Shown here: positions 7,674 through 63,844 of the stretch, in pieces
Layout of the letters: the number at the start of each line of letters is the position of its first letter
How positions within the stretch are numbered: the stretch's first letter is position 1
Assembly (NCBI GenBank): GCA_965113315.1
Contig: OZ220372.1
Strand: one strand, 5' to 3'
Source: Podarcis vaucheri
Taxonomy: Eukaryota
Length of the DNA stretch: 64,000 nucleotides
Notes under the pieces: generated by a model
Seen by the model: only the letters and a program-made list of their open reading frames with translations
Told to the model about the DNA's origin: nothing
The model's database searches: none
Position numbers and translations under genes: made by a program

Positions 7674-8670
7674 TGTGATAGGAATGTTATGGTCTTAGAT
7701 ATATGGTAATGTTCATAACCGCACATACATAGATCAGCACAGGAAGACCAACCTGGAACCCTTTTGATTCCTAAACTGACCAAAGGTTTTCTCTGCAAGG
7801 TCAAAATGGAAAAGCCTCCCCATTGTCTTTTCCTTCACAAATCCTGTCTTAAGGGTATGTCTGTGTTTGAATAAGGGTGTGAGCCTTATCATTACAAAAG
7901 ACTGGCCAGGCTCCTCAGGCAATCCAATCAAGTAACCTGCCAGACAGGAAATAAACAAGCGACAGGAGAAAAACAACATGCAAATGTTCTGTTTTAGACC
8001 GCCTTTTCTGTGATGTATCTGAGGGGTGGTCTTAGGTTACACCCCTTCTGTGATGTATGTATAATGTTTCTGGGGGTGGTCTTGATCTATAGGGTGGCAA
8101 TTTCAAAAGTCTTTACAGTGGTGCCTCGCAAGACGAAAAGAACCCGTTCTGTGATTCTCTTCGTCTAGCAGTTTTTTCGTCTTGCGAAGCAAGCCCATTG
8201 ACGGATTAGCGGATTAGCGCTATTAGCGGCTTTTAGTGGCTTATCAGATCAGCTGATAAGCGGCTTAGCGGCTTAGAAAAAGGGGGGGGAGGAAAAAACC
8301 CCCGCAGGAACTCGCAAGACATTTTCGTCTTGCGAAGCAAGCCCATAGGAGATTTGTTTTGCAAAGCACCTCCAAAACGGAAAACTCTTTCGTCTAGCGA
8401 GTTTTCTGTCTTGCGAGGCATTCGTCTTGCGGGGCACCACTGTATAAGGCCTTGCACACCATTTTTCTGGGTCCTCCTCCTTTCCTGCGGGTGAGGGGAG
8501 CACCCTGTTGCAACAGATCAATCAAGATCAAGCTTACTAGCTGCTTTGCTTCTCAATATTCTCTGGTCGGCCTCTGTTATTTTCTCCTACCAATAGGGAA
8601 CCTATGTAAGGATTCTGTATGGGCTCTTGGATACCCCATAAGGGAAAAGGGCATATTTTTATTTACAACA
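7674..8670 (+). mobile_element. ERV1-like solo LTR (4-bp TSD), interrupted by a MITE
   Basis: TGTGATA...TTACAACA termini; TSD CTAG (7670-7673/8671-8674); internal direct repeats; interrupts an L2-like fragment. Confidence 0.75.
8116..8442. mobile_element. Tc1/mariner (Tigger-like) MITE, family M2
   Basis: TIR CAGTGGTGCCYCGCAAGACGAA; TA TSD; internal TTAGCG repeats. Confidence 0.9.
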
Positions 8671-17310: not shown

Positions 17311-17992
17311 GACAGCAAATAGCCAAGATGGGGCAGGCCATCAGAAGCGCGCCCCCTTTGCCGCCTTGACTGGGCTGTGGGCAGGGAGCGATGGCTGACG
17401 CCAATTTTATGGCAGCCCCCCCCCCCCGCCGGTGCCCCTGGCAGGGGCCCACCTCACCACCCCCTAGCTCAGGCCCTGGTTGGTGCTGAACTGAACTGAA
17501 AATGAAATATACACTTTAACTGTCAAAAAAATTAATCCTAATGTATAAAATGTAAACAACCCGGAAGGCTGAACATGGAAATGCTGCAGAATGTGCCTTG
17601 TTAATTTTTAAAATGCCAAACCTCAATATTTATTCAGTATTTCAGTATAGCTCATTAAAGGAAAATACATTTTCCTCTTAGAGGAATTTTTGAAAAGACA
17701 TCCGTTTCTTGACAGCAGAGAGCAGAGCACAGCTTGACAGGTAAAGTGTGTATTTCATTTTCAGTTCAAAGCTGTAACAATTCAAATACCTCAATCAAAG
17801 GATGGGGCTTCGGCGTGGGGACCAGGAAGGAGACCTGAATTGTCCCAGTCGAATCACAGTACTAATTAATCTACCAAATCCAGAACACCACACATTCAGG
17901 TACACTCCCCCCTCCCCTCCCCCGTTGGCTTCTTCTTTTATAATCTTATATATTGAACTTATCCCATGCAAAGATTTAGATATTAAAAGGTA

Positions 17993-18299
17993 CAGTGGTG
18001 CCCCGCAAGACGAATGCCTCGCAAGACGGAAAACTCGCTAGACGAAAGAGTTTTCCGTTTTGGAGGTGCTTCGCAAAACGAATCTCCTATGGGCTTGCTT
18101 CGCAAGACGACAATGACTTGCGAGTTCCTACGAGTTTTTTCCCTTCCCCCCCTTTTTCTAAGCTGCTAAGCCGCTTATCAGCTGATCCGAAAAGCCGCTA
18201 ATCCGCTAATCCGTCAATGGGCTTGCTTCGGAAGACGAAAAAACCGCTAGACGAAGAGAATCACAGAACGGATTCTTTTCGTCTTGCGAGGCACCACTG
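17993..18299. mobile_element. MITE family M2
   Basis: Same TIRs; TA TSD. Confidence 0.9.
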
Positions 18300-20800
18300 T
18301 AAAGGTAAAGAGAGTTTAAAGCAGTATCATACCACTATAAACAATAATGGCTTCTTCTCAAAAATCGTGGGAACTGTAGTTTCTCAAGGGTGCCGATAGT
18401 TATTAGAAAACCTGTTTGCCTCATGGAACTGCAATTCCCAGAGTCCCGATAGAATTGGATGGATTGTTAAACCACTCTGAAAGTTGTAGCTCTGTGAGGC
18501 CTCGCATAAACATGACCCAATACCATTTGAGCCAAAGAGTCAACGGCTTTACTTCCCCAAAGCAGAGAAAACACTTTCTAATGACAGTGTAGGCTTTGCT
18601 CTTCAGTCCAGGGTACTTTGACTGTGAGCCCCAACGCTTGTTCTGTTGCATACCTTTGTGGAGGAAAACTTTGGACCAAGGTTATCAAGTCCATTGCACT
18701 CCTGCCCTGTACTTGCTAGAGTGTGCTGAGGCAAAGATACTGATGACTTGATAAGGGACTATTTGTTTTGCACTCACTTTTGCTGATATAAAGAGCAAAC
18801 AGGGACCTCTTACTATTACTCCAGATTTATATTAGATAGTGCGGTTCAGTTTTACAGCTTCTCTGCTTAAACCAATGGCAAACCTCTTATGTCGAAGCAC
18901 TTAAGCTTAATTAGGGTTTTATCAGTAGCATAGGTGCTTCTGAGATGTGCGTGTGCAAACCACAGGGTGCTAACTTGTGGTAAAGATGTCACAAATGGGG
19001 GGGGGCGGGTCAAGAAGGGTGTGACTAGGGTGATGTCTCCATGGACTATGGATAATTGATTAGAGTACGTTTAGGACCCTAATGTAAGGTTTGGATAAGA
19101 TATATATATGTAAGAGATACTCTGTGTCATTTCCATAATTGTTTTCTGGTTATTTATTATATTCTGTATTTCATTTGTAGACATGGAGCGTTCTCTTTCT
19201 GGATCCTGTCATTGCTACCCTCACACTTGAAAATAATAATAATAATAAAAGGCAAACGAGGGAGGCGGTCAAAGACAACTTCAGGATCTTCTTCAGTCAG
19301 ACTGCTCCCCCCCCCCCGCAGCAGGACTAAATGGACACCCTCTGCTCTCTGGGAAGGAAGGAAGGAGGAGGCAGCAGCCAGCCAGCCAGCGAGGGGTAAG
19401 CTCAGGACTTGCTCCAGGCAGTCTGTTCCTCCCTTTGTATCATTTGTTTTAGTTGTTTTAAATTTGTAAATTGCCTCGAGTAACTTGGCAAAAAGGCAGT
19501 ATAAAAATGCAACCAGCAAACAAGGAATGGAACATCGCATGGGTAGCTGTGGCATTATGTGGCCGGAACAGGAAAGGCTGTGGCCTTAACTATGGAGCCA
19601 GATCAGATCCGTCCTCCCTGCTTAGCTGTCACGCTGCACTGTTGCCTGCTCTCCTGCTCAGTAGACCTGAAGCACAACCACACAAAGGCACTGGGTTGAC
19701 CATGTACTATAGTATACACTTGTCTCATACTTCCCTTTGTACAGTGGGCTGATTTCTACATGAACTCACATACCTGTCTCTGTCCTTCATCCAGGCAAGC
19801 ACATGTCATTATCGTAGTTCAAGGATACATTCCACCTGGGTGGTGGTGGTGGGGAGACAAAAAAGGGCTGTAGTGTACTTCAACACCCCCCCGGCGGAAC
19901 ATGCTTCAAATGTGCTCTAAAGCACATGTATGTAGGCAGAGGGCAAACCCTTAAAGAGGGGTGTGGCATGGAGAAAGGGGGCATCACATGGGAGAATTCT
20001 GAGGGCAGATAAAGAGGCCTGGAGAGTCACATTTGGCCCCTGAGTATGTTCCCTGCTGCCACAGCAATACGATAGATACTGAACCTCCATGTCCCTGCAG
20101 TTGTGCTGGCAATGGCCACTGGGCCTCTCTGTACCCCAGGTCCATGGAGGGGATACTCTCAAAAGTAGGACGATAATTCCTCCTTCACCCATCACACTGC
20201 AACCCACCGTTTTAGGAGCACCCACTTCCTATTTTGTCATTTCCTAGTAGGGCGTTCCATTGTTTTGTAATGTCAGGCTGGTGTCCTCATCTAACCTTGT
20301 GCTGCAAACAGTACCTTGACAACGAAAATGGATCCTATGAGTCCTTATGGTTGCAAAGTGACATACTTCAGCTGGTGTTGGGAGTGGGGGAGCCTAATGA
20401 TGGCGAATCTGTATGTAAGAGTCAGACAGCTGCTGAATTCCTTGAAAGCATTGTGGGGTAAGAGCCTAGAGGAGCATTTCAATTGCAGCAGAACGCTGAG
20501 GCAACCACATTGAGGTTACTGATGTACCAGGCTCACAGCTAGCTGGCCGGGGGCAGAGCCTGAACTTTATTTTTTTTTAAAAAAAGAAAAACTATGTCCC
20601 TAGCCCCTCTAGAAAAATAAAAGTTATGAAGCAAAATGTGCAAGTATCCTTAGAAGCAATTTCTGTAAGATGAGCCAGCCTACCTGCTGCCACCTTTTAG
20701 TGTTTTTAGCTAATGAGTGACAGACAGATGTCAACAACAACTTGAAATGCAGCTGGAGAAGTGATGAGTTCTTTGCAGTTAAAGCCTCTCTAGTGTGTGC

Positions 20801-24641: not shown

Positions 24642-26236
24642 TACCATCATCTAGGTCAGCCTTCCCCATCTTGGTGTCCTTCAATCAGAATTCACTATAA
24701 AAAAAGAATTTATTACAAGGTGAAGTGTGTGAGGAATTGAATGGGTGCCGGGAGGGGGGGGGGTGTTGGAGGAGAGGCAGAAAGAAGTGCTAATTTGTTT
24801 GTGGCTAGGGGGCGCAATCTGGACGGTTCTGCCAGGGGCGCAAGATCACCTAGCTATGGCTCTGCCACCAACCAATCTCTCAGTCTTGCCATTCCCATCC
24901 TCCTCCTTATCAACCAGCCAAGGGGGTGGAGCTCGCTGTCTTCTTTCTCCTCCTTACACTAAAGTTTGCCTTTTCAGAACAGAACACATAGTCAGGATGG
25001 CGGCCAAAGTGGAATTTGTTATTCCACTAGCTGTTGGTCTCCTTGCCTTCTGTCTTACCAGCCACCACTCTCCCATATTCCAAATGTTCCTGCTCTAACT
25101 TTTTGACTTGTAATGGCATATTCTTTGTAGAGATCCACACTTTGCACCGAAACTGTCATCAGGCTAAGACATTCCTGTTAAGCTGGGAACTTAGTTCAAA
25201 CTGTGTGTGGCATGACTGTGATATGTGTGTGTTTTTAGTCTGTGTACACACTATGGCTTTAGAGCACACTCAAAGAATATTTCCCCCCTCAAAGAATTAT
25301 GGGCATCAGAATTTCTAAAGGGTTGCTGGGAGTTGTAACTCTGTGAGGTGCAAACGGCAGTGCCCAGAATTCTTTGAGGGAAAGAATGTGCTTCCAATCT
25401 GCTTTCCAAGTACACTGTGTTTGCAGCCCTTGAGTGTCCCCACCTAGCTGCAATGCGTCCTTGAACTCTTTCTTGATTGGCTAGAGGACAGAGACATGGG
25501 CAGGAGAAGGGGAAGGACCTTGGTACTGTTGGCAGCACAAGATTAGATGAGGACACCATTGAAAAACAACAGAACAGACTGCTAGGAAATGACAAAAGAA
25601 GGAGCAAATGCTCCAAAAACGGTGAAGGAGGAATCATCGTGCAACTTTTGAAAAATGTCCTCCCACCCCTACGGACCTGTGGTACACAAAGGCTCAGCGG
25701 CCACTACCAGCCCAGCTTCTGGGACGCTGAGTTTCCGTGTCTACCATAGTACTGTGGTATCGTGGCAACAGGGGAATTTTGTGCACCCTAACTGCATTTC
25801 TTGAGCATAAATTCCATATGAAACACAGAAAAGATTGTCAAACATTGTTTTGGAGTTATATTATATATGATTAAGGAAGGTTTAGATCAAGAATTCCTAA
25901 CTGAAGAAAGAAACCAATTCGGCTCATGCACAGAAATAACATCCCCCCCCCCACTCTCATTTGGCAATGTACTAATGCCAATTCATAAACCAGGGGGATT
26001 ATATTTTCAGCACAGTCAGTGCATCCCTCAAATTTATAATCCAGGTGCCAAATGGATTTCACAGCTGATACCCAAATGGGAGCAAATTACTGTGAGTTGG
26101 GATTTTGAAGTCGCTGTGAAAATTATAATATGAAGTGACAAGACAAAGGTTGGAGACTCTTAAAAATATCATTAGTAATAGCAGGTTGCCATCTGTTTTT
26201 CTCTGCTCAGCTAAACAGTGATAAAAAAAATGTGTG

Positions 26237-26287: not shown

Positions 26288-26770
26288 AAAATTAGATTGC
26301 TGATCTCTCCACCTCCAGTTAAACTATCTGCATTGCTTTGCACGCACTAGATCAAATTTTTAAAAACACAAAAATTGTCAACCAGTTTAAAAAAAAACCA
26401 CAATGAGAGGAACGGATGGAAATATGTCTTTATTAGTAAACACAGAGTCTAGATCACTACATAGGCCTGTTTGCTGTGTCATAACAGCTTTTCTAGCTTA
26501 GAAAGCGGCGGCTGTTTCCGGGATCCTTTGTTGTATATAAATAGAACAAGTTTCTAGCTCTCTTGGTGATTAAATCAAAACATGAGAATGGGGAGGCGGT
26601 TAGAAGAGGTGGTGTATTTGCTTCACACAGTTCCATGGTTCCATTGATCTCTTATGCCATGTAGAGGCAATAGAGGGCTATCTATACTTGGTTTAAGGCA
26701 GTCAGCTTCTTCTATGATGAGCTGTTGCTCAAGGCAATCCTGTATGGAAGAATTTATACAGTTTTTTATA

Positions 26771-27117
26771 CAGTGGTGCATTGCAAGATCAAATTAATCC
26801 GTTCCGTGAGTCTCTTCGTCTAGCGGTTTTTTCGTCTTGCGAAGCAACCCTATTAGCGGCTTAGCGGATTAGCGCTATTAAAGGCTTAGCAGCTATTAAA
26901 GGCTTAGCGGCTATTAAAGGATTAGCGGATTAGCGGCTAAAAGGCTATTAGCGGCTCAGCGGCTTAGAAAAAGGGGGGAAAGCGGAAAAAAATCGGAACA
27001 CTCGCAAGACGTTTTCCCATAGGGAAAATTGTCTTGCGAAGCAGCTCAAAAACGGAAAACCCTTTCGTCTAGCGGGTTTTCCATCTTGCGAGGCATTCGT
27101 CTTGTGGGGCACCACTG
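26771..27117. mobile_element. MITE family M2 (variant with GCTATTAAAGGCTTAGC repeats)
   Basis: Same TIRs; TA TSD. Confidence 0.88.
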
Positions 27118-27158
27118 TATATGCCAGCAGAGGACAATGTTGAAGTGATTATGATGCC

Positions 27159-27420
27159 TGCCCTGGAACCGCTCCCTCCTATCTGAGGGCAGGAAGGGCT
27201 GCTGGGGGGCGCTGTGCCGGCCGGCTTCGTGGCACCTTTCAGCCGCATGGGCTACGAGGTCTCTGTCCTCCCTTCATCGGGGACTCTCCTCTTCCCCAGC
27301 ATCCTGCACCTGCTCTGTGCCGGCTACCTGCGCTGCCAGAAGGCCCCATCCTTCAGGCTGCTCGAGGCCTGCCAGCGCATGCTACTAAACGGCAGCCTGA
27401 TGGGCCACGACTTGTTCAGG
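27159..27420 (+). pseudogene. SLC35G3/SLC35G6 (AMAC1-like) EamA transporter gene fragment, copy 1
   Basis: LLGGAVPAGFVAPFSRMGYEVSVLPSSGTLLFPSILHL aligns to human SLC35G3 [50 protein letters not shown] resembles SQGLSGYDWCG. Internal deletion; truncated at both ends. Confidence 0.85.
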
Positions 27421-27475
27421 GGCGGCTCGTGGGCTGGTAAAACGGTCTTCGTGGGCCGCACGTTGCCGACCCCTG
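27421..27475 (-). mobile_element. hAT/Charlie-like transposon terminus fused to SLC35G fragment copy 1
   Basis: Reverse complement reads CAGGGGTCGGCAACGTGCGGCCC, a Charlie/MER58-type TIR. Flanked by ATCTAAAC, matching the Charlie target consensus NTCTARAN. Confidence 0.7.
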
Positions 27476-28092
27476 ATCTAAACGAAATCAAAAACTGCCA
27501 AGCAAAGGCTGAAGCACCACAGTGTTTGAGGCTTGCATTGCTGCTAGGGTTGTGAACAGCGCTTTCCTCTTCTCCATCCCTGCCCCCTGAGTCACGGGGG
27601 GAAAGAGGACTTCATAAATGCTGCCTCTCCTTCCCACCTCTGCTTTGTGACACGTAGACTGCTAGATTCCCACCCTTGTAGAACCAAGGCATAGAACCCA
27701 GACGCCCTGACAACAGACACTGCAGGAGCAGAGAAAGGGGTGGCTTCTAGTCACCCTCCCTCCTGACCCTGAACCTAGGGAACATGGAGGAAGGGCCCTG
27801 ATTCAGGGATATACCTGCATTGAATGCAGAAGACCCCGGGGTCAGACTCCAACACCATCTCAAGGTAGGGCTGGGGAAAGAGACCCATCTGAAATCTTGC
27901 CGCTCAGCGGGGACAACATTGAGCTGGATGGACCACTGTGGTCTGAATCGGGCAGCTTTCTATGTGAGAAAATCCCTGCCCTGTGCAAGATCACGGGATG
28001 CCCTTGGCTAACTGCTCCCTCCACCCGCCCCAGGAATATTAGGCAGATAGTTGAGCTCAAGAAAGGAAAGGTAGACTTTGAAGAGAATCGCT

Positions 28093-28228
28093 GGGTATGT
28101 GGTATAATGGTTAGAGTGTCAGACTGTGGCTTGGGTGACCAGGGTTCGAACCCCACTTGGCCGTGAGGCTCACTGGGTGACCTCGGGGACCTGTCCCCGT
28201 CTCTCAGTCTAACCTACCTCACAATGTT
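28093..28228 (+). mobile_element. tRNA-derived CORE/MIR-like SINE
   Basis: TGGTATAATGGTTAGAGTG A box; GGTTCGAACCCC B box; CTGGGTGACCT core. Confidence 0.6.
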
Positions 28229-29026
28229 GCAGGGGGTCGGACTAGATGACTCATGTGTGTTTCCCACAGGATAGCCACTGTGGCAACAGGAGGCTGGACT
28301 GAATGGGTCATAAGCTTGATCCAGAAGCTTGTTCTAATGCTCTTAACATTTGAAAACAGTCCTCTCAACTCTCCTTACTACATAAATAATTTTAATTTCA
28401 CACACAGTAGCATAGCGTGGGTTGCCAGGGCCCGGGGCAAGGCAAGGATCCTCAGCACTGCCTGCCAATAAATAGGCTGCAACAAAGGGCCAATAGCTCT
28501 GCAACCTACACGACTGGCAGCCGCAGCACCTGTGAGCATTCAACACAGTGGAGAACAAGAGGAGGGAATGTTCGGGAGCGGGTATCTATCCAAAGCCCAT
28601 GCAGAGGGTGCCCTCGCACCCGACTGTTGCCCAAAGCCACACCTCATTCTGCCCACACAAACACTGGGATATTTTCTGTGTGAGGGGGAGGGCATGCTAT
28701 TTTTTTATTTATTATTACAATTTTTTATGTTTTTTCCTTTGGAAATGTTGTGCCCCTAAGATATTTGCACCCAGGGCAAACGTCTCTGTGGCTACGCCAC
28801 TGCTGGGTTATCTAAGACTCCATTTCTGAGACTCACTGCCCATCTGAGTAGACAACCAAGCAGGTTTGGAGATTCATGAGACTTCGATTGGGGAATCTGG
28901 CTTAAAACCATAAATTGATGCTTGGGAAATGTGAGTTTTCACTTAAAACAGCCCCAGCCTCTCCTTATTTGCAACTTACTTCCCGCCTCACAACACTCCC
29001 CCAAGGTGGGCTTGTTTAGAAACCGA

Positions 29027-29342
29027 GCTGGGGGCGGTGTGCCGGCTGGCTTTGTGGCGCCCTTCACACGCATGGCCAACGAGGCCTCGGGCATCGCTTC
29101 ATTGGAGATCCTCCTCTTCCGCAGGAGACTGTGCTGGCTACCTGCGTTGCCAGAAGGCCCCATCCTTCGGGCTGCTGGAGGCCTGCCAGCGCACGCTCCT
29201 GCACGCCTCGATCGGCATCATCTCCATCAGTTGCGCCTACAGCTCCTTCATGCTGATGCCCAGTGGGAACGCCACCGCCGTCCGGAAGGGCTCGCCCACG
29301 ATCTGCTCCATCCTGCTGGCTCTCTGCATCGAAAACGGCAGC
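29027..29342 (+). pseudogene. SLC35G3/SLC35G6 (AMAC1-like) gene fragment, copy 2, frameshifted
   Basis: GGVPAGFVAPFTRMANEASGIASLEILLF, then after a frameshift ISISCAYSSFMLMPSGNATAVRKGSPTICSILLALCIE, aligning to human [38 protein letters not shown]. Confidence 0.9.
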
Positions 29343-29391
29343 TCATGGGCTGGTAAAACAGTCTTTGTGGGCCACACGTTGCCAACCCCTG
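29343..29391 (-). mobile_element. hAT/Charlie-like transposon terminus fused to SLC35G fragment copy 2
   Basis: Same terminus (CAGGGGTTGGCAACGTGTGGCCC on minus), followed by a different 8-mer ATCTACAG. Confidence 0.7.
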
Positions 29392-29934
29392 ATCTACAGG
29401 CCTCAAACACTGTGGTAGTTCAGCCTTTGCTTGGCAGTTTATGATTTCTTTTAGATAAAGAGAATGGCAGCATAATCACTTCAACATTGCCCTCTGCTGG
29501 CATACAGGTGCATAGACACTTTGTTTGGTCACGGTTGTTACTGTGAGACTCGTTGATGCCCTCTTACTTACATTTGTGCATTGGTGCATTAGTGCAAATT
29601 CACTGAAGGAATTATTTGGCAGATGGATATTCTTACAAAAGCAAGAGGTTTGCTAGAGGGCCAGTGTTCTATAGTGTGAATCTGGAGGCCTCTCACGTTC
29701 GAGTCTCATGCCTGTTATGAACTTTCCTGGTGGCAAATTAGGCAAGTCATTAATACTGATTTATTTAACAGAGTTGTTCTTGGGAGTACTGACTGAGTAG
29801 GTATATGAAGTGCTTTGAACAGCCAGGAAGCAGTAGGCATATGCCAGTCCTTATTTTTATTCGATTTATTACTCCTTGTAGCCCCCTCTGCCTTGCCATC
29901 CCAACAAGTTCAGATCAATCGGCACACGTCAGGT

Positions 29935-31210
29935 GCCCCCAGGGGAGACACCAAGGGCAGGGAGGCGAGAGGATTTGCAGGAGAAGGAGGGGAAACAAAG
30001 ATTTTAAAAGATATATTTTTTTTAAAGTGTCCCCGGATTCATTGAAAAAAAATCTGATAACCTTAAAGGTAAAGGTAAAGGTACCCCTGCCCGAACGGGC
30101 CAGTCTTGACAGACTCTGGGGTTTGTGCGCCCATCTCACATCTATTGGCCGGGGGCCAGCGCTGTCCGAAGACACTTCCGGGTCACGTGGCCAGCATGAC
30201 AACGCTGCTCTGGCGAGCCAGAGCCGCACACGGAACGCCGTTTACCTTCCCGCTGGTAAGCGGTACCTATTTATCTACTTGCCCCCGGGGGTGCTTTCGA
30301 ACTGCTAGGTGGGCAGGCGCTGGGACCGAGCAGCGGGAGCGCACCCCGCCGCGGGGATTCGAACCGCCGACCTTTCGATCGGCAGCCCTAGGCGCTGAGG
30401 CTTTAGCCCACAGCGCCACCCGCGTCCTGATAACCTTATAACCTGATAACCTGATAACCTTACCATCACTACAAACAGCAAGCTGTCAAATGAAGACACC
30501 CAGGAGCAGTCACAGTAGCTAGTGAGGTTGCTGGGGCGTTTGTGACCTCATGCTTGTGCACACCACACATGTAAAGCAGATAGATGACCCCCCAAAAAAA
30601 TAATAATAATCCTGGGCCTCCAGGGGAGACACCAATGGCAGGGAGGCCAGAGGATTTGCAGGAGCCAGCAAGTCCTGCAGGAGAAGGAGGGGAAACAAAG
30701 ATTTAAAGGCTGCCGTTTTTTAGCGAGGACTGCCGGGCCTTGAGAAGGCAGCGCAGGGAGCCTGCAGAGGGCAGGTGCAGGATGCTGGGATAGAGGAGGA
30801 TCCCCAAGGTAAGGAGGACGGATGGGAGGGAGCAGTTCCAGGGCGGGTGTCATGGCGGGGGTGGGGGAGGGAAGCAGAGGAGGCCGGCCCAGGTCTCTGC
30901 CCCTAGGTCGGGGCCCCCAAGGGGAGACTCCAATGGCAGGGAGACCAGATGGTTTCTGGAATCCAGGAAGTTCCTGCAGGAGAAGGAGGGGAAACAAATA
31001 TTTTAAAAGATTTTTTTTTTAAAGTGTCCCCGGATTCATTGAAAGAAAATCTGAAAACCTTACCATCTTTATAAACAGCAAGCTGTCAAATGAAGGCACC
31101 CAGGAGCAGTCAGAGTAGCTAGCAAGGTTGCTGGGGCGTTTGTGACCTCATGCTTGTGCACACCACACATGTAAAGCAGATGACCCCCCCAAAAAAAATA
31201 ATAATCCTGG
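29935..31210 (+). repeat. Local tandem duplication (~29935-30615 and ~30915-31210)
   Basis: AAAGTGTCCCCGGATTCATTGAAA...GTAAAGCAGATGACCCCCC...AATCCTGG block present twice. Confidence 0.85.
30066..30427 (-). mobile_element. Sauria SINE, young subfamily
   Basis: Intact CpGs; TSD CTGATAACCTTA. Confidence 0.93.
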
Positions 31211-31221
31211 GAACTGTAGTC

Positions 31222-31819
31222 CATAGCTGTCAAGTGTCCCTTATTTGAAGGGACAGTCCCTTATTTCAGCACCATGTCCCGCTGCTCTCCCTTATTGATG
31301 GATGTCCCTTAAATTATGTCCCTTAAATTTCAAAGGAAGCAGCTCCTCTCCCTCCCTCCCTCCCTGCCGGCCAGGGAGGAGGGAGGCTCCAACTGTGTTG
31401 CTTGGCTGTGTTGCTCACCCAATAAGAAGTCTAAGAATGACAGGGGGTGGAGCTTGCATGCCTTGTGTGTGGCTAGTTAATGCAAGCTGAGGGGTTTTTT
31501 GAATGCTGGACGCCATTTTGTTGCACGTGCTGCTGCAAACTTTGCAGTGCAAAGCCAGGCCGGGGAGCCATCTTAAGTTGAGGCTGCATAGGGCTTGTGG
31601 TGCATGTGATTCAGATTCTATTCAGTTGAACATCTGGTTACAAAGTTGGTTGGACAGTGTTCTCGAAGCTACCAGCATGAGTTTGACCAGACTGCAGGAG
31701 GACAGGAAGACTGGAGTGCCTGGAACAGGTGTGGCTGCAGGTCCCTTATTTTGGCTGCTGGACCCTTATTTTCAAGGCTGCTGGTCCCTTAGTTTCAAAT
31801 CTGTAAGTTGACAGCTATG
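31222..31819. mobile_element. hAT non-autonomous element
   Basis: TIR CATAGCTGTCAA/TTGACAGCTATG; perfect 8-bp TSD CTGTAGTC; subterminal GTCCCTTA repeats. Confidence 0.88.
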
Positions 31820-32299: not shown

Positions 32300-33329
32300 T
32301 TGTGGTAGACCTGTAAAAGGGTAAAAGAGTATTGGGAAATAATTCATAATGAATTGAAAAAAATGTTTAAAAGTACTTAAAAAAACCCAGAGTCCTCCTT
32401 GTTGGGGATAATTCAGATGGAAATTCCCAGGTGTCAGAAAAGGTTATTTTTGTATGCCACTACTGCGGCTCGTGTTTCATTAGCCCAAAAATGGAAAATG
32501 AGTGAAGTGCCAACTACAGAAAATGGCAACTTAAACTGATGGAATATGCACAGCTTGTGGACCTAACAAATAGAATAAGAGAACAAAAAGAACATACAGT
32601 GGTGCCCCGCAAGACGAATGCCTCGCAAGACGGAAAACTCGCTAGACAAAAGAGTTTTCCGTTTTGGAGGTGCTTCGCAAAACGAATCTCCTATGGGCTT
32701 GCTTCGCAAGACGACAATGTCTTGCCAGTTCCTGCTGGTTTTTTTCCCCCTCCCCCCCTTTTCTAAGCCGCTAAGCCGCTTATCAGCTGATCCGATCAGC
32801 AGATAAGCCGCTAATAGCGCTAAGCCACTTATCAGCTGATCCAATCAGCAGATAAGCCGCTAATAGCGCTAAGCCGCTTATCAGCTGATCCGATCAGCAG
32901 ATAATCCGCTAAAAGCCTCTAATAGCGCTAATAGCGCTAATCCGCTAATCCTTCAATGGGCTTGCTTTGCAAGACGAAAAAAACCGCTAGACGAAGAGAA
33001 TCACAGAACGGATTATTTTCGTCTTGCGAGGCACCACTGTACGTTTAAAGAAGACTGGAAAATGTTTATTGAATATATGGAGGAAAACTGTTTATATTTG
33101 AAAACGTGGGCAGCATTAAGATGAATTCAACGGTGTAAATAAGTTTTGATGGATGTAATAATGGAATACTGAATGGCTTAGTTTATATAAAATATGCAGT
33201 GATTTATGTTATGCAAAATGAACCATGGCAAGAGAAGAAGGGAAGTCATTGATATTTTAAGGTTGTTTAAATGAATATTCTAAAATGTAAAACAGAATAT
33301 GTAATAAAAAACTATAGAGAGAGAAAAAA
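32300..33329 (+). mobile_element. 5'-truncated L1-clade LINE (ORF2 C-terminus + 3'UTR)
   Basis: W.TC..VKEYWEIIHNELKKMF...LLGII...LFLYATTAAR...AQKWK motif; A-rich tail; near-TSD GAGTTTTGCCAT/GAGCTTTGCCAT. Confidence 0.8.
32597..33039. mobile_element. MITE family M2 with expanded internal minisatellite, inserted in L1 fragment
   Basis: Same TIRs; TA TSD; three tandem copies of a ~50-bp internal unit. Confidence 0.9.
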
Positions 33330-34881: not shown

Positions 34882-35920
34882 CACTGGGACCTCAGTTTTT
34901 GAACAGCTTAGTTCATGAACAACTTGGAACCCGAACGCTGCAAAACCAGAAGTAGGTGTTCCAGTTTTCAAACTTTACCTCCAAAGCCAAACGGCTCCAT
35001 TTTGAGTCCCCCTGTGTTTCTTGTTGTGCTGCTAAATTGTGCCCCCCCCCATTGTAATTCAAGCCTTCCGTTTCCGATTGCAGCATTCTGAGGTGATATT
35101 TGGAGCTTATATTTGGTGCTTTTGTTTTTGCTATTTATTTTGCCTTTTTTGTTTTGAGGCATTTTCGGTTAATTTGTTTTTGTGACTGTAGATCCCAGTT
35201 CAGCTTCTGATTGATTGACTGCGGAAATTGATAAAAGCCCCCCATTCAAACAATGACTATCATCAGTGCAGGTATGAAAAAAAATAAATTATTTTTATCA
35301 TCTACAATACCATCTTATTTATTTTACAGTACTGTATATTAAGGGACGCGGGTGGCGCTGTGGGCTAAAGCCTCAGCGCCTAGGGCTTGCCGATCGAAAG
35401 GTCGGCGGTTCGAATCCCCGCGGCGGGGTGCGCTCCCGTTGCTCGGTCCCAGCGCCTGCCCACCTAGCAGTTCGAAAGCACCCCCGGGGGCAAGTAGATA
35501 AATAGGTACCGCTTACCAGCGGGAAGGTAAAGGGCGTTCCGTGTGCGGCTCTGGCTCGCCAGAGCAGCGTTGTCATGCTGGCCACGTGACCCGGAAGTGT
35601 CTTCGGACAGCGCTGGCCCCCGGCCAATAGATGTGAGATGGGCGCACAAACCCCAGAGTCTGTCAAGACTGGCCCGTTCGGGCAGGGGTACCTTTACCTT
35701 TACTGTATATTGATTCTTGCTTTCATTTTATGCATCAGTAGTCTTGTAAGATAGTAAAATTCACGTTAAATTGCTGTTTTAGGGATTGTTTTTAGAAGTG
35801 TGGAATGGATTAATCCGTTTTGCATTACTTTCTATGGTGAAGCGCGCCTTGGTTTTAAAACGCTTTGGTTTTGGAATGGACTTCCGGAACGGATTAAGTT
35901 TGAGAACCAAGGTAGCACTG
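34882..35920. mobile_element. Tigger-like non-autonomous DNA transposon, interrupted by Sauria SINE
   Basis: Degenerate TIRs CACTGGGACCTCAG / CAAGGTAGCACTG; TA flanks. Confidence 0.65.
35343..35700 (+). mobile_element. Sauria SINE, young subfamily
   Basis: Nearly identical to 30066-30427; TSD TACTGTATATT. Confidence 0.93.
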
Positions 35921-48928: not shown

Positions 48929-49969
48929 TATATAATGTTGGTTTTAAGTACCCATAACTTTGTCCTTCTTCCATACATTTCTGTCCATCATTTGATGACT
49001 ACAGCATGAATGAGCCATCACAGATCTATCACTGCACAGATCTATCTTTTCATGAAATGCCTCCTTAAACACAGCACGTTTTTTCAAAGAAGATAGTTAA
49101 AACATTTGGTGTGGAGGTATGGAACCTCAGAGTAGTTTTTAAATTGCTAGCTGTGAAAAGCTGCCAGGAGCTGCGGAATGCCCATTTCAAGGTGGATCAT
49201 CTCTAGGAGGTGAGAATGAAGATGTTTTATCTAAATGGGAAGGGGGATAGAAGTAGGCAATGCAAGTGGACATGGTAGCCATTAAAAAATAAAAGCTCAA
49301 AGTACCGCAGGGAAAAACATACGAGTCAGATACATTTGAAAAGAGGCACCATATATAAATGTTTTATGTGCCAGTGCTAGAAACAAGTGAGCCAAGATGG
49401 GCAAGCTGGAGCGTGCAGCTTTGAAAGAGGGCATCACTATAGGAAGGACTTTAGGGTGGTGTCCATCTGTAAATCAATGAGGAGAGAGTCAAACAAGAAA
49501 CCCCAAAGGAGTGGACTTCTCTACAGCAGTGGTTCCTAATTAGTGGTCCACAGACCCCAGGGTGTCCACGTTACCCACCCAGGGGTTTTTCCAGCGCCAT
49601 TCACATAATAAAAACTGGCATAGAGATATCAAAATTTTCAAAAGGAGGGGGTCCAAGGCTTGGCTGTTGAAAAACAAAAGCCTAGGGCTTGAGATGAAGA
49701 ATGGAATCCAAGAGGCATTCAAAGGAGGAATGGTTGCAGGAATGGACAACTTAAAAGACCCTCACAAACTGGGGAAGTGTGTAAAATTTGAGAACTGGTA
49801 GAAAAGAAGTTGAAAAGTCAAGAAGATCAAATCTCTCCAGTATGTGTGGGAGATATTTAAAGCCACTATTTAAAAAACCCCTCTAGAATCAGAAAATGCA
49901 CCAGAAAATACAGCAGATCAGAAAATGCACCATTAGGTACAAGAGGATGCCTGCATGATTAAAAAAAAA

Positions 49970-57439: not shown

Positions 57440-58960
<1,521 letters not shown>

Positions 58961-60674: not shown

Positions 60675-61604
60675 TTTACCCCACCCATCTGACTGGGTTG
60701 CCCCAGCCACTCTGGGCACAGTGTTAGAAATTCAGATATATAAGCTAGGCGCCAAATGACTCCTTACACTGGGGTTACAGTCGCCAAAATGGGATGCCTG
60801 GTTGCCATTTTTGGACCAGATGGTTCAAAAGTTGTATTTTTCATTATGACTTTTTGGTTCCTGAAATTCCTTCTGATTGTGCAGATAAAATATAATGGAT
60901 ATAATTCTACAGGATGGGGTATTAGTGTGTGAAAACAGTCCAAGTGCAAAGATCCCCAGGCATGCATCTGCAGATGGGGGAGACGTCAGGCAGCATCCGG
61001 GCGCCCAGGCATCTTCACTTGGTCGCAAGTGGCTGGTAGCCCTGTGCAAAATGCACCTGGCACCTGGCGAATTTCAAACACTGCCTATCCCTCCATGCAT
61101 TGCTGCACAGTTATGTCACTATTTCCTGGCTTGTTTGTTTCTATGGTTTCTTCTGCTCTTGCTGACTTTAAAGTTTGGAGCAGTAACATTAGCAGTATGG
61201 GGAAACAGGTCAATAAAACATTTCCCCCTCTTTGATGTCATTCACTCTCAATTCTAAATTATGCACATATTTTGCATGTGCAAAATAGCACAGTGCAACA
61301 CTAGCACAATGAAAATAATTTTTAAGGAAGAAAAACTTAAAAAATAGTATTCGCTTTGCACCTCCAAGTAAAAAAATGCATATATACAGTTGCCATCAAA
61401 ATTGTTCAACCCCTGTTGCAAATCAGGTTTATTGTCAAAATTTGCAGACTTTCAGCTGTTTGCAATCAGCAAATCAAACAAAAGCAATTGAAATAGCTCA
61501 ACACAACAGATGCTTCAAGTGGTTTCCCCAAATTCAGCTGAACTTGGAATTTGTCCTGGCTTCTACAATCTCACTATTATTCAACCCCTTCATGGCAAGC
61601 ATCT

Positions 61605-63034
61605 TTAGTACTCAGTGGAGCAGCCTTTTGCTGCTATGCCCAGCTGCAAACACAATACATAGACAGACAGCAGCTTCTGGCAGAGTCCCTGAGAAATCTT
61701 AGCTCATTCCTTATGAGCAATGGTCTCCAGTTCAGTAATATTCTTGGGTTTGCGTTCTGCAACCACCTTCTTCAAATCCCACCAGAGATTTTCTATGGGG
61801 TTCAAGTCAGGTGACTGAAATGGCCACTGTAGTAGAACCTTCCAGGACTTCTTCTGCAACCAAGTCTTGGTGGAATTTGAGGGATGCTTGGGAGCATTGT
61901 CCTGTTGGAAGGTCCAATGACACCCATGCTTCAGCTTCCTTGCAGATGGCATGACATTTCCTCCTAGGATTTCCTGATACTTCAATGAATCCATCCTGCC
62001 TTCTACACACTGCAAGTTTCCAGTGCCAGAGGATACAAAGCAGCCCCAGAGCATCACTGAACCTCCACCATTCTTCATTGTATTCTTTTCAGTGTATGCT
62101 TCATTCTTCTTCCTCCAGACATAACATTGATCCATGGGGCTGAAAAATTCCAATTTTGTTTCATTGCTCCACAGAACAGAATCCCAGAACTTCTGTGGCT
62201 TATTTATATGATTTTGCGCATATTAGAACTTACTTTGTTGTGCTTTAGGATCAGTAGTGTACGTCTTGGAGTTCTGGCATGGAAGGCATACGTGTTTAGT
62301 CTGTGGCTTGCTGTGTTCACTGAAATCTAAGTGCCTGCTGCCTCCAGGTCTTGCTGCAGCTCATTTGAAGTCACTTGAGGGCTTTTCCCAGCCCATCTTC
62401 TCAGAAATCTGGTTGCTTGCACAGATAGCTTCCTTTTTCTGCCCTGTCCAGGTAGTGTAACCACTGTTCTTCTGAACTTACAAACTATGCTTCCAGCAGT
62501 GTCTAGGAACATTCAGTGCCTTCGCTATCTTCTTGTATCCTGCTCCTTGATTATGAAGGGTGATTATCTCTTCTCTTACCTCTTGGACCATTGTCTTGAC
62601 CAGTGTTCGAAACTCCCATTGTTCTAGGCGCATTTTGCGACAGGCAATTTCATCAGCACAAGCCGTTTCTGAGCTCTGAGAGCAGTACTGCACCTAAGAG
62701 TTCAGAGTAAACTGCAGAGAGGAAGGAAAGGAGGGCCTTTTTCTGCCTCCCCAGTTCCAGCTCCTTTGAATACTGGAGAAGAGACCCTTTTAAGAATATT
62801 AGCGGGGTGGGTGGGGGAAGCATGGCTTTGTTTTTTGCAGTCTTCAGATGATGACTAGACCATGTAAAAAATTGTAAGATTTTAGCTGAGGTACATTCAT
62901 TTTCAGCACTGTATTCTTGTTATAAACAAGCGCCCTTAGACATTCCGTTGTGGCGCCCATAACCTAGGTTTAAGGTGCTGTTTAGCTCCCAGCTTTCATA
63001 GCTCTGTTTCTAACACTGCTCTTGACTTGGCCAT
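61605..63034 (-). pseudogene. Tc1 transposase pseudogene (frameshifted, interrupted by hAT MITE)
   Basis: Fragments VREEIITLHNQGAGYKKIAKALNVP, GGGSVMLWGCF, FQQDNAPKH, QSPDLNPIENLW, ending AKGCSTEY*; ATG at 63034. Confidence 0.9.
62601..63018. mobile_element. hAT-type MITE inside the Tc1 transposase 5' end
   Basis: CAGTGTTCGAAAC...GTTTCTAACACTG; 8-bp TSD GTCTTGAC/CTCTTGAC; related element at ~60719-61083. Confidence 0.8.
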
Positions 63035-63844
63035 ATTTCTGACATTCAGTCAAATTTGACACTCCACAAACCTCCGGACACAAAAGTTGTTGAGCTTTTT
63101 TTTAGTTTTAGTCTTGCCAGAGTTGTTGAACTTCTTTTGCAAAATCTCAAAAGAAATTGAGCCTATTTTTAAGGGAATTCGGCAAAATCTACACTCCGTA
63201 TGTCCAGATTTCCCCTGCTTCTGACACCTGAATCCAGCTCAGATATTTCATGTGTTGCATCAGGTGTGCTTGAGGAAACACCTGTTGTATTTGTGTTGCT
63301 GTTCCAGTTTCAGCTGAATTTGAGGGAAACCACTTGAAGCATCCATTGTGTTTAGCTATTTCAATTGCTTTTGCTTGATTTGCTCATTGCAAACAGCTGA
63401 AAGTCTGCAAATTTTGATAGTAAACCCAATTTGCAATGGGAGTTGAATAATTTCGATCGCAACTGTAAATATATATAATGCACACATTCTCATATTCTAT
63501 TCAGAACCATAATGTTATATTTATGGCAACAGTTTCCCATTAAAAATAAGTAAACTTGAACCAGACTAGATTCCCCATGAATATTTAAAACTACCTCATG
63601 ATAACTACTGTATCTTTCAAAATAAGGTTTGGAACAAAAAATAGACAGCAGAACCTGTGCCTGTTTACTCAGAACTAAGGATTAAATCTTAACGTGGTTT
63701 ACCTGGGGGTAAGCCCTATTAAATTCAATAGGATTTACTTCCGAGTATCAATGTTAATGCTTCTCAGAACAGACACATTGAAATTAATGGACATGACTAA
63801 TTGGGTCCATTAATCTCCATTAGTCTACTCTGAGTAAAAGTTAA

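Follow-up and report, generated by a model that had tools for sequence, protein, structure and literature searches.

Animal Pack-TIRs are recognized by a cargo of more than 100 bp that is not itself a transposable element (TE), has a recognizable parent and lies between the two termini of one element with terminal inverted repeats (TIRs), the whole unit being surrounded by a target site duplication (TSD); the definition also uses 90% DNA identity to the parent (PMC8277862, which, like the other papers cited here by PMC number, is drawn on in excerpt). In that survey, 208 of 370 cases are hAT elements, most are thought to arise by repair without transposition, and four multicopy Pack-hATs are reported among the reference genomes, none of them in Anolis, for which the library row lists 0 hAT entries; the sole lizard surveyed by Tan et al. 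had no multicopy Pack-hAT (PMC8277862). Here, we describe a locus of the lizard Podarcis vaucheri (GCA_965113315.1, contig OZ220372.1), at which fragments of the transporter gene SLC35G6 stand next to hAT ends within a stretch of 64,000 nucleotides, called the window below. A preliminary description had proposed that the gene fragment and the hAT end moved as one unit into two sites. Our analysis indicates that the cluster is most likely a fossil, i.e., non-functional pseudogene pieces of SLC35G6 that were locally rearranged beside hAT ends. As to its origin, we lean, with somewhat less than even confidence, to one ectopic 5′ half of the gene that was joined once to a hAT end and then copied locally by microhomology-driven template switching, a history that does not require the gene fragment to have transposed. 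The parts that carry this argument are:

27120-27153, plus strand: flank L, an inverted duplicate of 29471-29504, its final ATG common to copy 1 (3-bp microhomology)
27151-27416, plus strand: copy 1, SLC35G6 codons ~37-172 (tblastn, codon table)
27417-27475, plus strand: hAT end of copy 1, its outer TIR reading CAGGGGTCGGCAACGT on the minus strand
27476-27535, plus strand: flank S, starting with the target ATCTAAAC, an inverted duplicate of 29397-29456
29027-29336, plus strand: copy 2, SLC35G6 codons ~57-163, retaining codons 119-162
29337-29391, plus strand: hAT end of copy 2, the same as that of copy 1, with six of seven CpGs decayed
29392-29504, minus strand: uninterrupted host segment of 113 bp, in the order (on the minus strand) L, 14 bp, ATCTAAAA, S, TAGAT

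Compared on one strand, the sequences that follow the two TIRs differ, as the preliminary description had stated, but in inverted orientation the flanks are shared: the right flank of copy 1 (27476-27535) is the reverse complement of 29397-29456 at 55 of 60 positions, and its left flank (27120-27153) that of 29471-29504 at 33 of 34. Shared extended flanks, which had been named as the sign of a simple segmental duplication, are hence present in part, namely as inverted duplicates of the right flank of copy 2. The host segment 29392-29504, which abuts the TIR of copy 2 as ATCTACAG, has 14 bp more than the flanks of copy 1 and is uninterrupted; it therefore represents the empty version of the copy 1 site. 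From this it follows that copy 1 is an insertion, with its right junction exactly at TIR/ATCTA and its left junction at an ATG common to flank and gene. The two targets lie ~57 bp apart within one duplicated 113-bp segment, and the flank duplication stops 5 bp short of the TIR of copy 2. Neither a TSD nor an outer partner TIR was found. Joint duplication of gene fragment and hAT end is supported, whereas two independent transpositions into unrelated sites are not. As a separate observation, the 24-mer over the empty target (29443-29466) recurs with one mismatch at 44797-44820, 15 kb away, which none of 100 shuffles reproduced.

The assignment of the peptide to SLC35G3/G6 (AMAC1-like; EamA, PF00892) stands, with clear homology over codons ~10-172. 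Copy 2 (29124-29345) matched boa SLC35G6 best (81% identity, E = 1.4e-25) and, in three of 20 candidates, the SLC35G6/G3-like proteins of boa, fence lizard and gecko at 81, 73 and 69%; the closest homologues of the fragment are squamate. In tblastn, copy 2 fell on residues 51-99 and 98-179 of the reference protein P0001 (E = 4e-40) and copy 1 on residues 55-122 (E = 5e-18), gene homology in the latter beginning at 27151. Since tblastn found neither an intact SLC35G gene nor any part of the 3′ half of SLC35G6 within the window, the fragments are ectopic. None of the three fragment translations matched Pfam, so that no EamA domain was detected in them, and a PDB sequence search with copy 2 gave no match. 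A further tblastn match (GNAPSVRKGSS, 36957-36989, E = 1.5) has no DNA similarity to the copies and was taken as chance.

Copies 1 and 2 match each other directly (27205-27386 vs. 29030-29200, 78.6%, E = 5e-41). The complementary deletions previously ascribed to them hold for copy 2, which lacks 30 bp between GGCAGC (27391-27396) and GGCGGC (27421-27426), joins the hAT end at this microhomology and has lost its frame near 29125 through a net loss of 11 bp. The in-frame deletion of copy 1 measures 132 bp rather than ~135 bp and removes codons 119-162 of P0001, according to a codon table with 13 named squamate proteins; a frameshift and a 12-bp loss near codons 52-55 add to the damage of this copy.

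Both copies run into a common terminus of 55 bp (27421-27475 vs. 29337-29391, 89%, E = 2e-15), which ends in CCCCTG. Exact matches to the pattern CAGGGGTNGSCAA in the window are confined to these two ends, and blastn found no further copy of the Charlie-type end. We presume a resemblance to the mammalian MER58/Charlie elements. The earlier proposal of a Charlie-like terminus with Charlie target preference is supported: the terminal motif CAGGGGTYGGCAA at both copies fits YARNG and a CAGGGGT-type TIR (PMC3014272, Table 1), and the targets ATCTAAAC and ATCTACAG fit NTNTANAN, a motif found at 0.6% of positions, these two fits not being independent because ATCTA is common to both. A minus-strand occurrence of ATCTAAAC at 25880-25887 is not followed by a hAT end. 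All six differences between the two termini fall at CpG sites, with none at the 41 non-CpG positions. The hAT end of copy 1 retains seven CpGs and that of copy 2 one, without any other difference, which suggests unequal germline methylation of two copies only 1.9 kb apart.

Upstream of copies 1 and 2, no plus-strand partner of the Charlie-type TIR was found. For copy 2, no ATCTACAG with up to one mismatch occurs in the 3 kb upstream; for copy 1, there are three one-mismatch matches, none with a TIR after it. That the opposite TIR is missing from both copies, as first noted, is consequently right for an outer partner, but a degenerate inverted copy of the TIR (27417-27434), aligned with three single-base gaps, starts at the gene/TE junction of copy 1. 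Its score of 20 was reached by none of 746 windows of the GC-rich fragments and by 14 of 9,139 sampled window positions, and the 59 bp from 27417 to 27475 fold end to end (DNA fold of -16.8 kcal/mol, z = -3.2, one of 200 shuffles as good). If this repeat is the partner TIR, the gene fragment lies outside the element; alternatively, the repeat may be subterminal. Neither a TSD nor a hAT target is seen in the 8 bp adjoining it on the left (GACTTGTT). Nearby, an intact hAT miniature inverted-repeat transposable element (MITE) at 31222-31819 has CATAGCTGTCAA ends and a perfect 8-bp TSD, CTGTAGTC; complete hAT insertions are thus recognizable here, unlike the SLC35G copies.

The gene fragment had been described as present twice, which is correct for the direct copies with the same end, but a third, minus-strand fragment had been overlooked:

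30707-30900, minus strand: copy 3, SLC35G6 codons ~10-46, 77-101, 109-118 and 163-166
30911-31062, minus strand: segment U (~95 bp) and a second, outward-facing hAT-like end, TAAGGTTWTCAG
30463-31215, plus strand: tandem duplication with a unit of ~600 bp, 30463-30616 being repeated at 31063-31215, which encloses copy 3

Copy 3 matches copy 1 at 83% over 76 bp (blastn, E = 4e-17), with two shorter pieces in addition. Its 5′ part was the best match in the window to a hidden Markov model of the SLC35G N-terminus (E = 0.001 without and 0.02 with null2), built from 18 of 19 sequences (17 squamate, one turtle; P0019 was dropped, having no anchor). Copies 1 and 3 have the 132-bp deletion in common and also agree in changed residues at codons 78, 79, 83 and 88, at which copy 2 matches the gene. 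Copy 3 has no Charlie-type end and instead adjoins a different, hAT-like one. Segment U consists of a polypyrimidine tract plus CAG and is acceptor-like; the stretch after the CAG could possibly be what decay has left of the start of the gene. Further copies of U lie at 30614-30707 and ~29932-30007, and the second hAT-like end recurs at 30053-30065. Candidate partner TIRs for the end beside copy 3 did no better than chance (scores as good occurred in 134 and 178 of 387 random windows), and a degenerate left TIR with a 6-of-8 TSD near 29900, considered for the element with the TAAGGTT end, was rejected for the same reason. The two units of the tandem duplication differ at seven of 115 positions. 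Taken together, three fragments lie within 3.76 kb of the 64 kb and none in the other 60 kb, an arrangement with P ~0.01 for three independent uniform insertions. In the same area, a pair of short interspersed nuclear elements (SINEs; 30067-30427 and 35344-35703), presumably Sauria SINEs, is 99% identical, and one of them sits in the TAAGGTT terminus and duplicates it.

The age of the arrangement could be bounded by an orthologue. A search of 1.84 billion protein representatives gave 11 matches, one of which, P0094 (187 residues), is translated from the orthologous locus and matches 26654-26764 and 27115-27552, each at 89%. Its residues 1-37 and 38-187 match either side of the following insertion:

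26769-27119, no strand assigned: MITE inserted at a TA, which we take to be Tc1/mariner-like, with seven other copies in the window

P0094 has the same gene/TE junction and both flanks but neither the MITE nor the stop codon nor the 12-bp deletion. Copy 1 was therefore in place before the two genomes diverged; the MITE was inserted after copy 1 arose, is no part of the structure and is irrelevant to the rearrangement; as a cause of the inverted duplication it is ruled out by the same junctions. P0094 alone was chimeric among the 11 matches (P0093 and P0095-P0098 were left out). No chimeric protein with other flanks was found, which is weak evidence given that the protein sets are clustered and depend on gene prediction. 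Likewise, no short protein of 53-172 aa resembled the copy 1 frame, the ESM Atlas gave no usable match, and Pfam gave none for P0094, including EamA. Although P0094 is an open frame of 187 codons, a function was rejected, as it starts in the non-coding flank, initially out of the SLC35G6 frame. In P. vaucheri, the frame is broken by the MITE and a stop codon, and the alignment of 150 positions contains 16 differences, a gap of four included. A frame composed of flank, gene fragment and hAT end is probably an artefact of gene prediction. Among the 92 representatives matched in the protein search, none carried a lacertid name (P0015, P0023, P0062, P0070, P0075, P0085 and P0090 were left aside).

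The junction sequences and the structure are read from the DNA itself, and from them we infer an order of events and a polymerase mechanism. Initially, the 5′ half of SLC35G6 (to codon ~172, perhaps to the intron end) would have been copied as DNA into the interval between NAMPT and CCDC71L and linked in a single event of repair synthesis to a hAT end of Charlie type at its normal target ATCTACAG. Template switches beside this end, during replication or repair, could then have duplicated and inverted the 113-bp host segment and copied gene fragment and hAT end into one of the duplicates, with entry at ATG (3 bp), return at ATCTA (5 bp) and a loss of 14 bp; a CCTG overlap (4 bp) would fit a 1.9-kb inversion between the duplicates. 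The nascent strand would have passed from ATG into the fragment, back at ATCTA, via CCTG to the far end of the 1.9-kb block and back through copy 2 and the empty segment. As the sequences show, copy 3 was shaped by a separate tandem duplication and by microhomology deletions, and all copies were trimmed by further deletions; P0094 shows that the MITE, the stop codon and the 12-bp deletion set this copy 1 apart from its orthologue. One such history of template switching would account at once for the absence of a left TIR and of a TSD, for the inverted orientation and for the duplicate that is empty. Random joins equal microhomologies of 3, 5 and 4 bp in 5.5, 0.6 and 1.8% of 100,000 trials, respectively, and templated inverted insertions with microhomology junctions have been described for microhomology-mediated break-induced replication and fork stalling and template switching (MMBIR/FoSTeS). 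Overall divergence is also compatible, as copies 1 and 2 differ at 14 of 174 non-CpG positions and the flank duplicates at five of 92 (Fisher p = 0.62).

Several observations speak against this local copying. Microhomology is present at three of the four junctions, the fourth having no clear one; ATCTA is also what a Charlie-type transposase prefers and so is not independent evidence; and the CCTG overlap presupposes an ancestral adjacency that is assumed and that a local BLAST did not independently support. Moreover, the copies have decayed unequally. Residues unseen in the 13 named squamates make up 12 of 102 in copy 2, 22 of 74 in copy 1 and 15 of 38 in copy 3 (copy 2 vs. the others, p = 0.004 and 0.0005), and over the 57 codons common to copies 1 and 2, 12 unseen changes are found only in copy 1 and one only in copy 2 (p = 0.003). 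Between copies 1 and 3, 18 of 127 non-CpG positions differ, which is above the flank duplication (p = 0.045), even though it is copy 3, not copy 2, that has the same deletion as copy 1. Such a departure from a clock is a problem for any model with a single capture. The deletion unites copy 1 with copy 3, but its terminus and codon 113 place it with copy 2, so that some copy must be a mosaic or several templates were used. The unequal decay of copies 1 and 2 is concentrated upstream of the 11-bp scar of copy 2, where 12 of 73 non-CpG positions differ, as against two of 60 in the middle and none of 41 in the terminus, with the boundary between upstream and middle chosen after the data had been seen.

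It is mainly this unequal divergence that lends weight to two further explanations, both of which involve transposition. In the first, a non-autonomous hAT would have captured the 5′ half of SLC35G6 and multiplied into subfamilies, some bearing the 132-bp deletion and others not, exchanging cargo with a second hAT family (that of the TAAGGTT end), and the three members seen here would have lost their other ends. Templates of different history would suit the nested, unequal divergences, both right junctions are precise at CCCCTG and followed by targets of the rare NTNTANAN type, comparison with the empty paralogous site reveals an insertion whose end coincides exactly with the TIR, and two different outward-facing hAT-like ends accompany the fragment; hATs of Anolis acquire extraneous DNA and recombine between elements (PMC3014272). 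Against such a dispersed family, the copies are clustered within 3.8 kb, copy 1 lies inside a duplicate of the copy 2 flank, no copy has a TSD or an outer TIR, the only inner TIR-like repeat leaves the gene outside the pair and, as weak evidence from clustered, prediction-dependent protein sets, no chimera with other flanks is known from the search. We regard it as unlikely, albeit worth serious consideration. The broader claim that the lizard lineage carries dispersed non-autonomous hATs with an SLC35G6 5′-half body, swapped between Charlie-type and TAAGGTT-type ends, and that the locus is a nest of their members, appears rather improbable.

In the second explanation, the origin is a single locus and the transposase made copy 1, either by a local hop or by one-ended or alternative transposition into ATCTAAAA, with the left end later deleted at the ATG. 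The precise junction of TIR and target opposite an empty paralogue would be expected from this, the break of the flank duplication 5 bp from the TIR of copy 2 resembles a trimmed excision end, and flanks are re-replicated and become joined at microhomologies when Ac undergoes alternative transposition (PMC4270019). A remnant of a TSD on the left was not found, though, the duplicated host segment has no TE ends on both sides, unlike composite insertions, and the deletion that copy 1 shares with copy 3 rather than copy 2 stays unexplained; we consider a transposase origin of copy 1 improbable. Finally, a resident SLC35G6 pseudogene, processed or duplicated, that two unrelated hAT MITEs entered independently and that was then broken by deletions and small duplications, the 59-bp fold-back being a whole MITE and the gene a mere neighbor, would suit the end-to-end fold, the repeat-dense region and the germline retrocopies plausible for a gene that is testis-specific in the mouse (PMC12611266), but is very unlikely, as host DNA with a hAT target and not codon 173 onward lies to the right of this MITE, its left 8 bp show neither TSD nor target, the 3′ half of the gene is missing from the window, no poly(A) follows any copy within ~150 bp and copy 3 is preceded by a possible splice acceptor.

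Apart from the cluster, the window is vertebrate DNA between two genes and rich in repeats. Exon 1 of NAMPT lies at 2713-2775 on the minus strand (the best PDB matches are all nicotinamide phosphoribosyltransferase) and CCDC71L at 57734-58825, also on the minus strand (PF15374, E = 2e-15). A TA-flanked MITE family is present in at least seven copies with internal TTAGCGGC-type tandem repeats in varying number:

8114-8446, MITE family copy
17991-18301, MITE family copy
26769-27119, MITE family copy, the insertion beside copy 1
32594-33041, MITE family copy
45210-45523, MITE family copy
47099-47417, MITE family copy
48591-48930, MITE family copy

Furthermore, a Tc1-like element at 61380-63472 has inverted repeats of ~170 bp (89%) and, on the minus strand, a DDE_3 domain (E = 2e-10). 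No Rfam family reached the gathering threshold over the window; a piece of the 5′ end of 18S rRNA (39508-39610, RF01960, E = 9e-13) was seen as orphan rDNA, and the GC-rich stretch upstream of it (39060-39500) may be external transcribed spacer.

With regard to function, all copies, unlike SLC35G6/SLC35G3 themselves, are truncated before the second half of the gene and carry frameshifts or large deletions. Neither an intact frame nor two EamA repeats are present, no working transporter is encoded, and a function is not indicated. In the mouse, the parent gene encodes a testis-specific UDP-GlcNAc transporter in two coding exons (PMC12611266). With local copying of a stray fragment as the preferred reading, the locus is one more decayed gene-fragment duplication beside a DNA-transposon end and of little consequence, but useful as an example of how a local inverted duplication can mimic two independent insertions. 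If, on the other hand, the dispersed family existed, it would add a squamate case with coding cargo to the few multicopy Pack-hATs of animals and would demonstrate cargo swapping between hAT families. It could also be a source of small RNAs against a fertility gene and would allow silencing of the testis gene SLC35G6 by TE-borne fragments to be tested.

Compared with described systems, a published SLC35G-carrying transposon was not encountered in the literature searched, which excluded repeat databases and subscription journals, or in 12 supplements of PMC8277862. A processed pseudogene would be truncated at the 5′ side and keep a 3′ end with poly(A), whereas the copies represent the 5′ half only and no A-run of eight or more follows them. 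The Charlie-related hATs of Anolis (hAT-HT2, hAT-N4, hAT-N5) share YARNG, the TIR start CAGGGGT and the target NTCTAGAN/NTNTANAN with the end described here, whose TIR, CAGGGGTCGGCAACGT, is not identical to any of the Anolis TIRs listed; for these elements, the excerpt mentions uptake of other TE fragments, not of host exons (PMC3014272). MMBIR/FoSTeS events and composite insertions of Ac resemble the locus in their short inverted duplications, templated insertion and microhomology near a TE end, but the Ac products are bounded by two TE ends and an 8-bp TSD (PMC4270019). Here, the duplicated flank lies between no such pair of termini, an 8-bp TSD is missing, and the product is old and fixed, as P0094 indicates. 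Multicopy Pack-hATs of frog and alligator (e.g., Pack-hAT-N8_XT with the 5′ untranslated region of CAPSL) and Ssk-FB4 of Drosophila likewise combine a gene fragment with hAT ends in several copies; these have distinct TSDs at unlinked loci (PMC8277862), whereas the present copies are clustered, share an inverted flank and have no TSDs. The closest likeness is to the single-copy Pack-TIRs of animals, in which a host gene fragment of a few hundred bp is joined to a hAT end with junction microhomology, probably without transposition (PMC8277862). Pack-TIRs have both termini, and the parent lies within 15 kb for 57% of them (PMC8277862); at this locus, each copy has one outer end and no TSD, so that the cargo does not lie between two termini of the same element, the parent is not nearby, and there are three local copies in both orientations. 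Although it falls outside the class for these reasons, the locus carries a non-TE cargo of more than 100 bp with a parent recognizable at the protein level and resembles a single-copy Pack-TIR in its probable origin.

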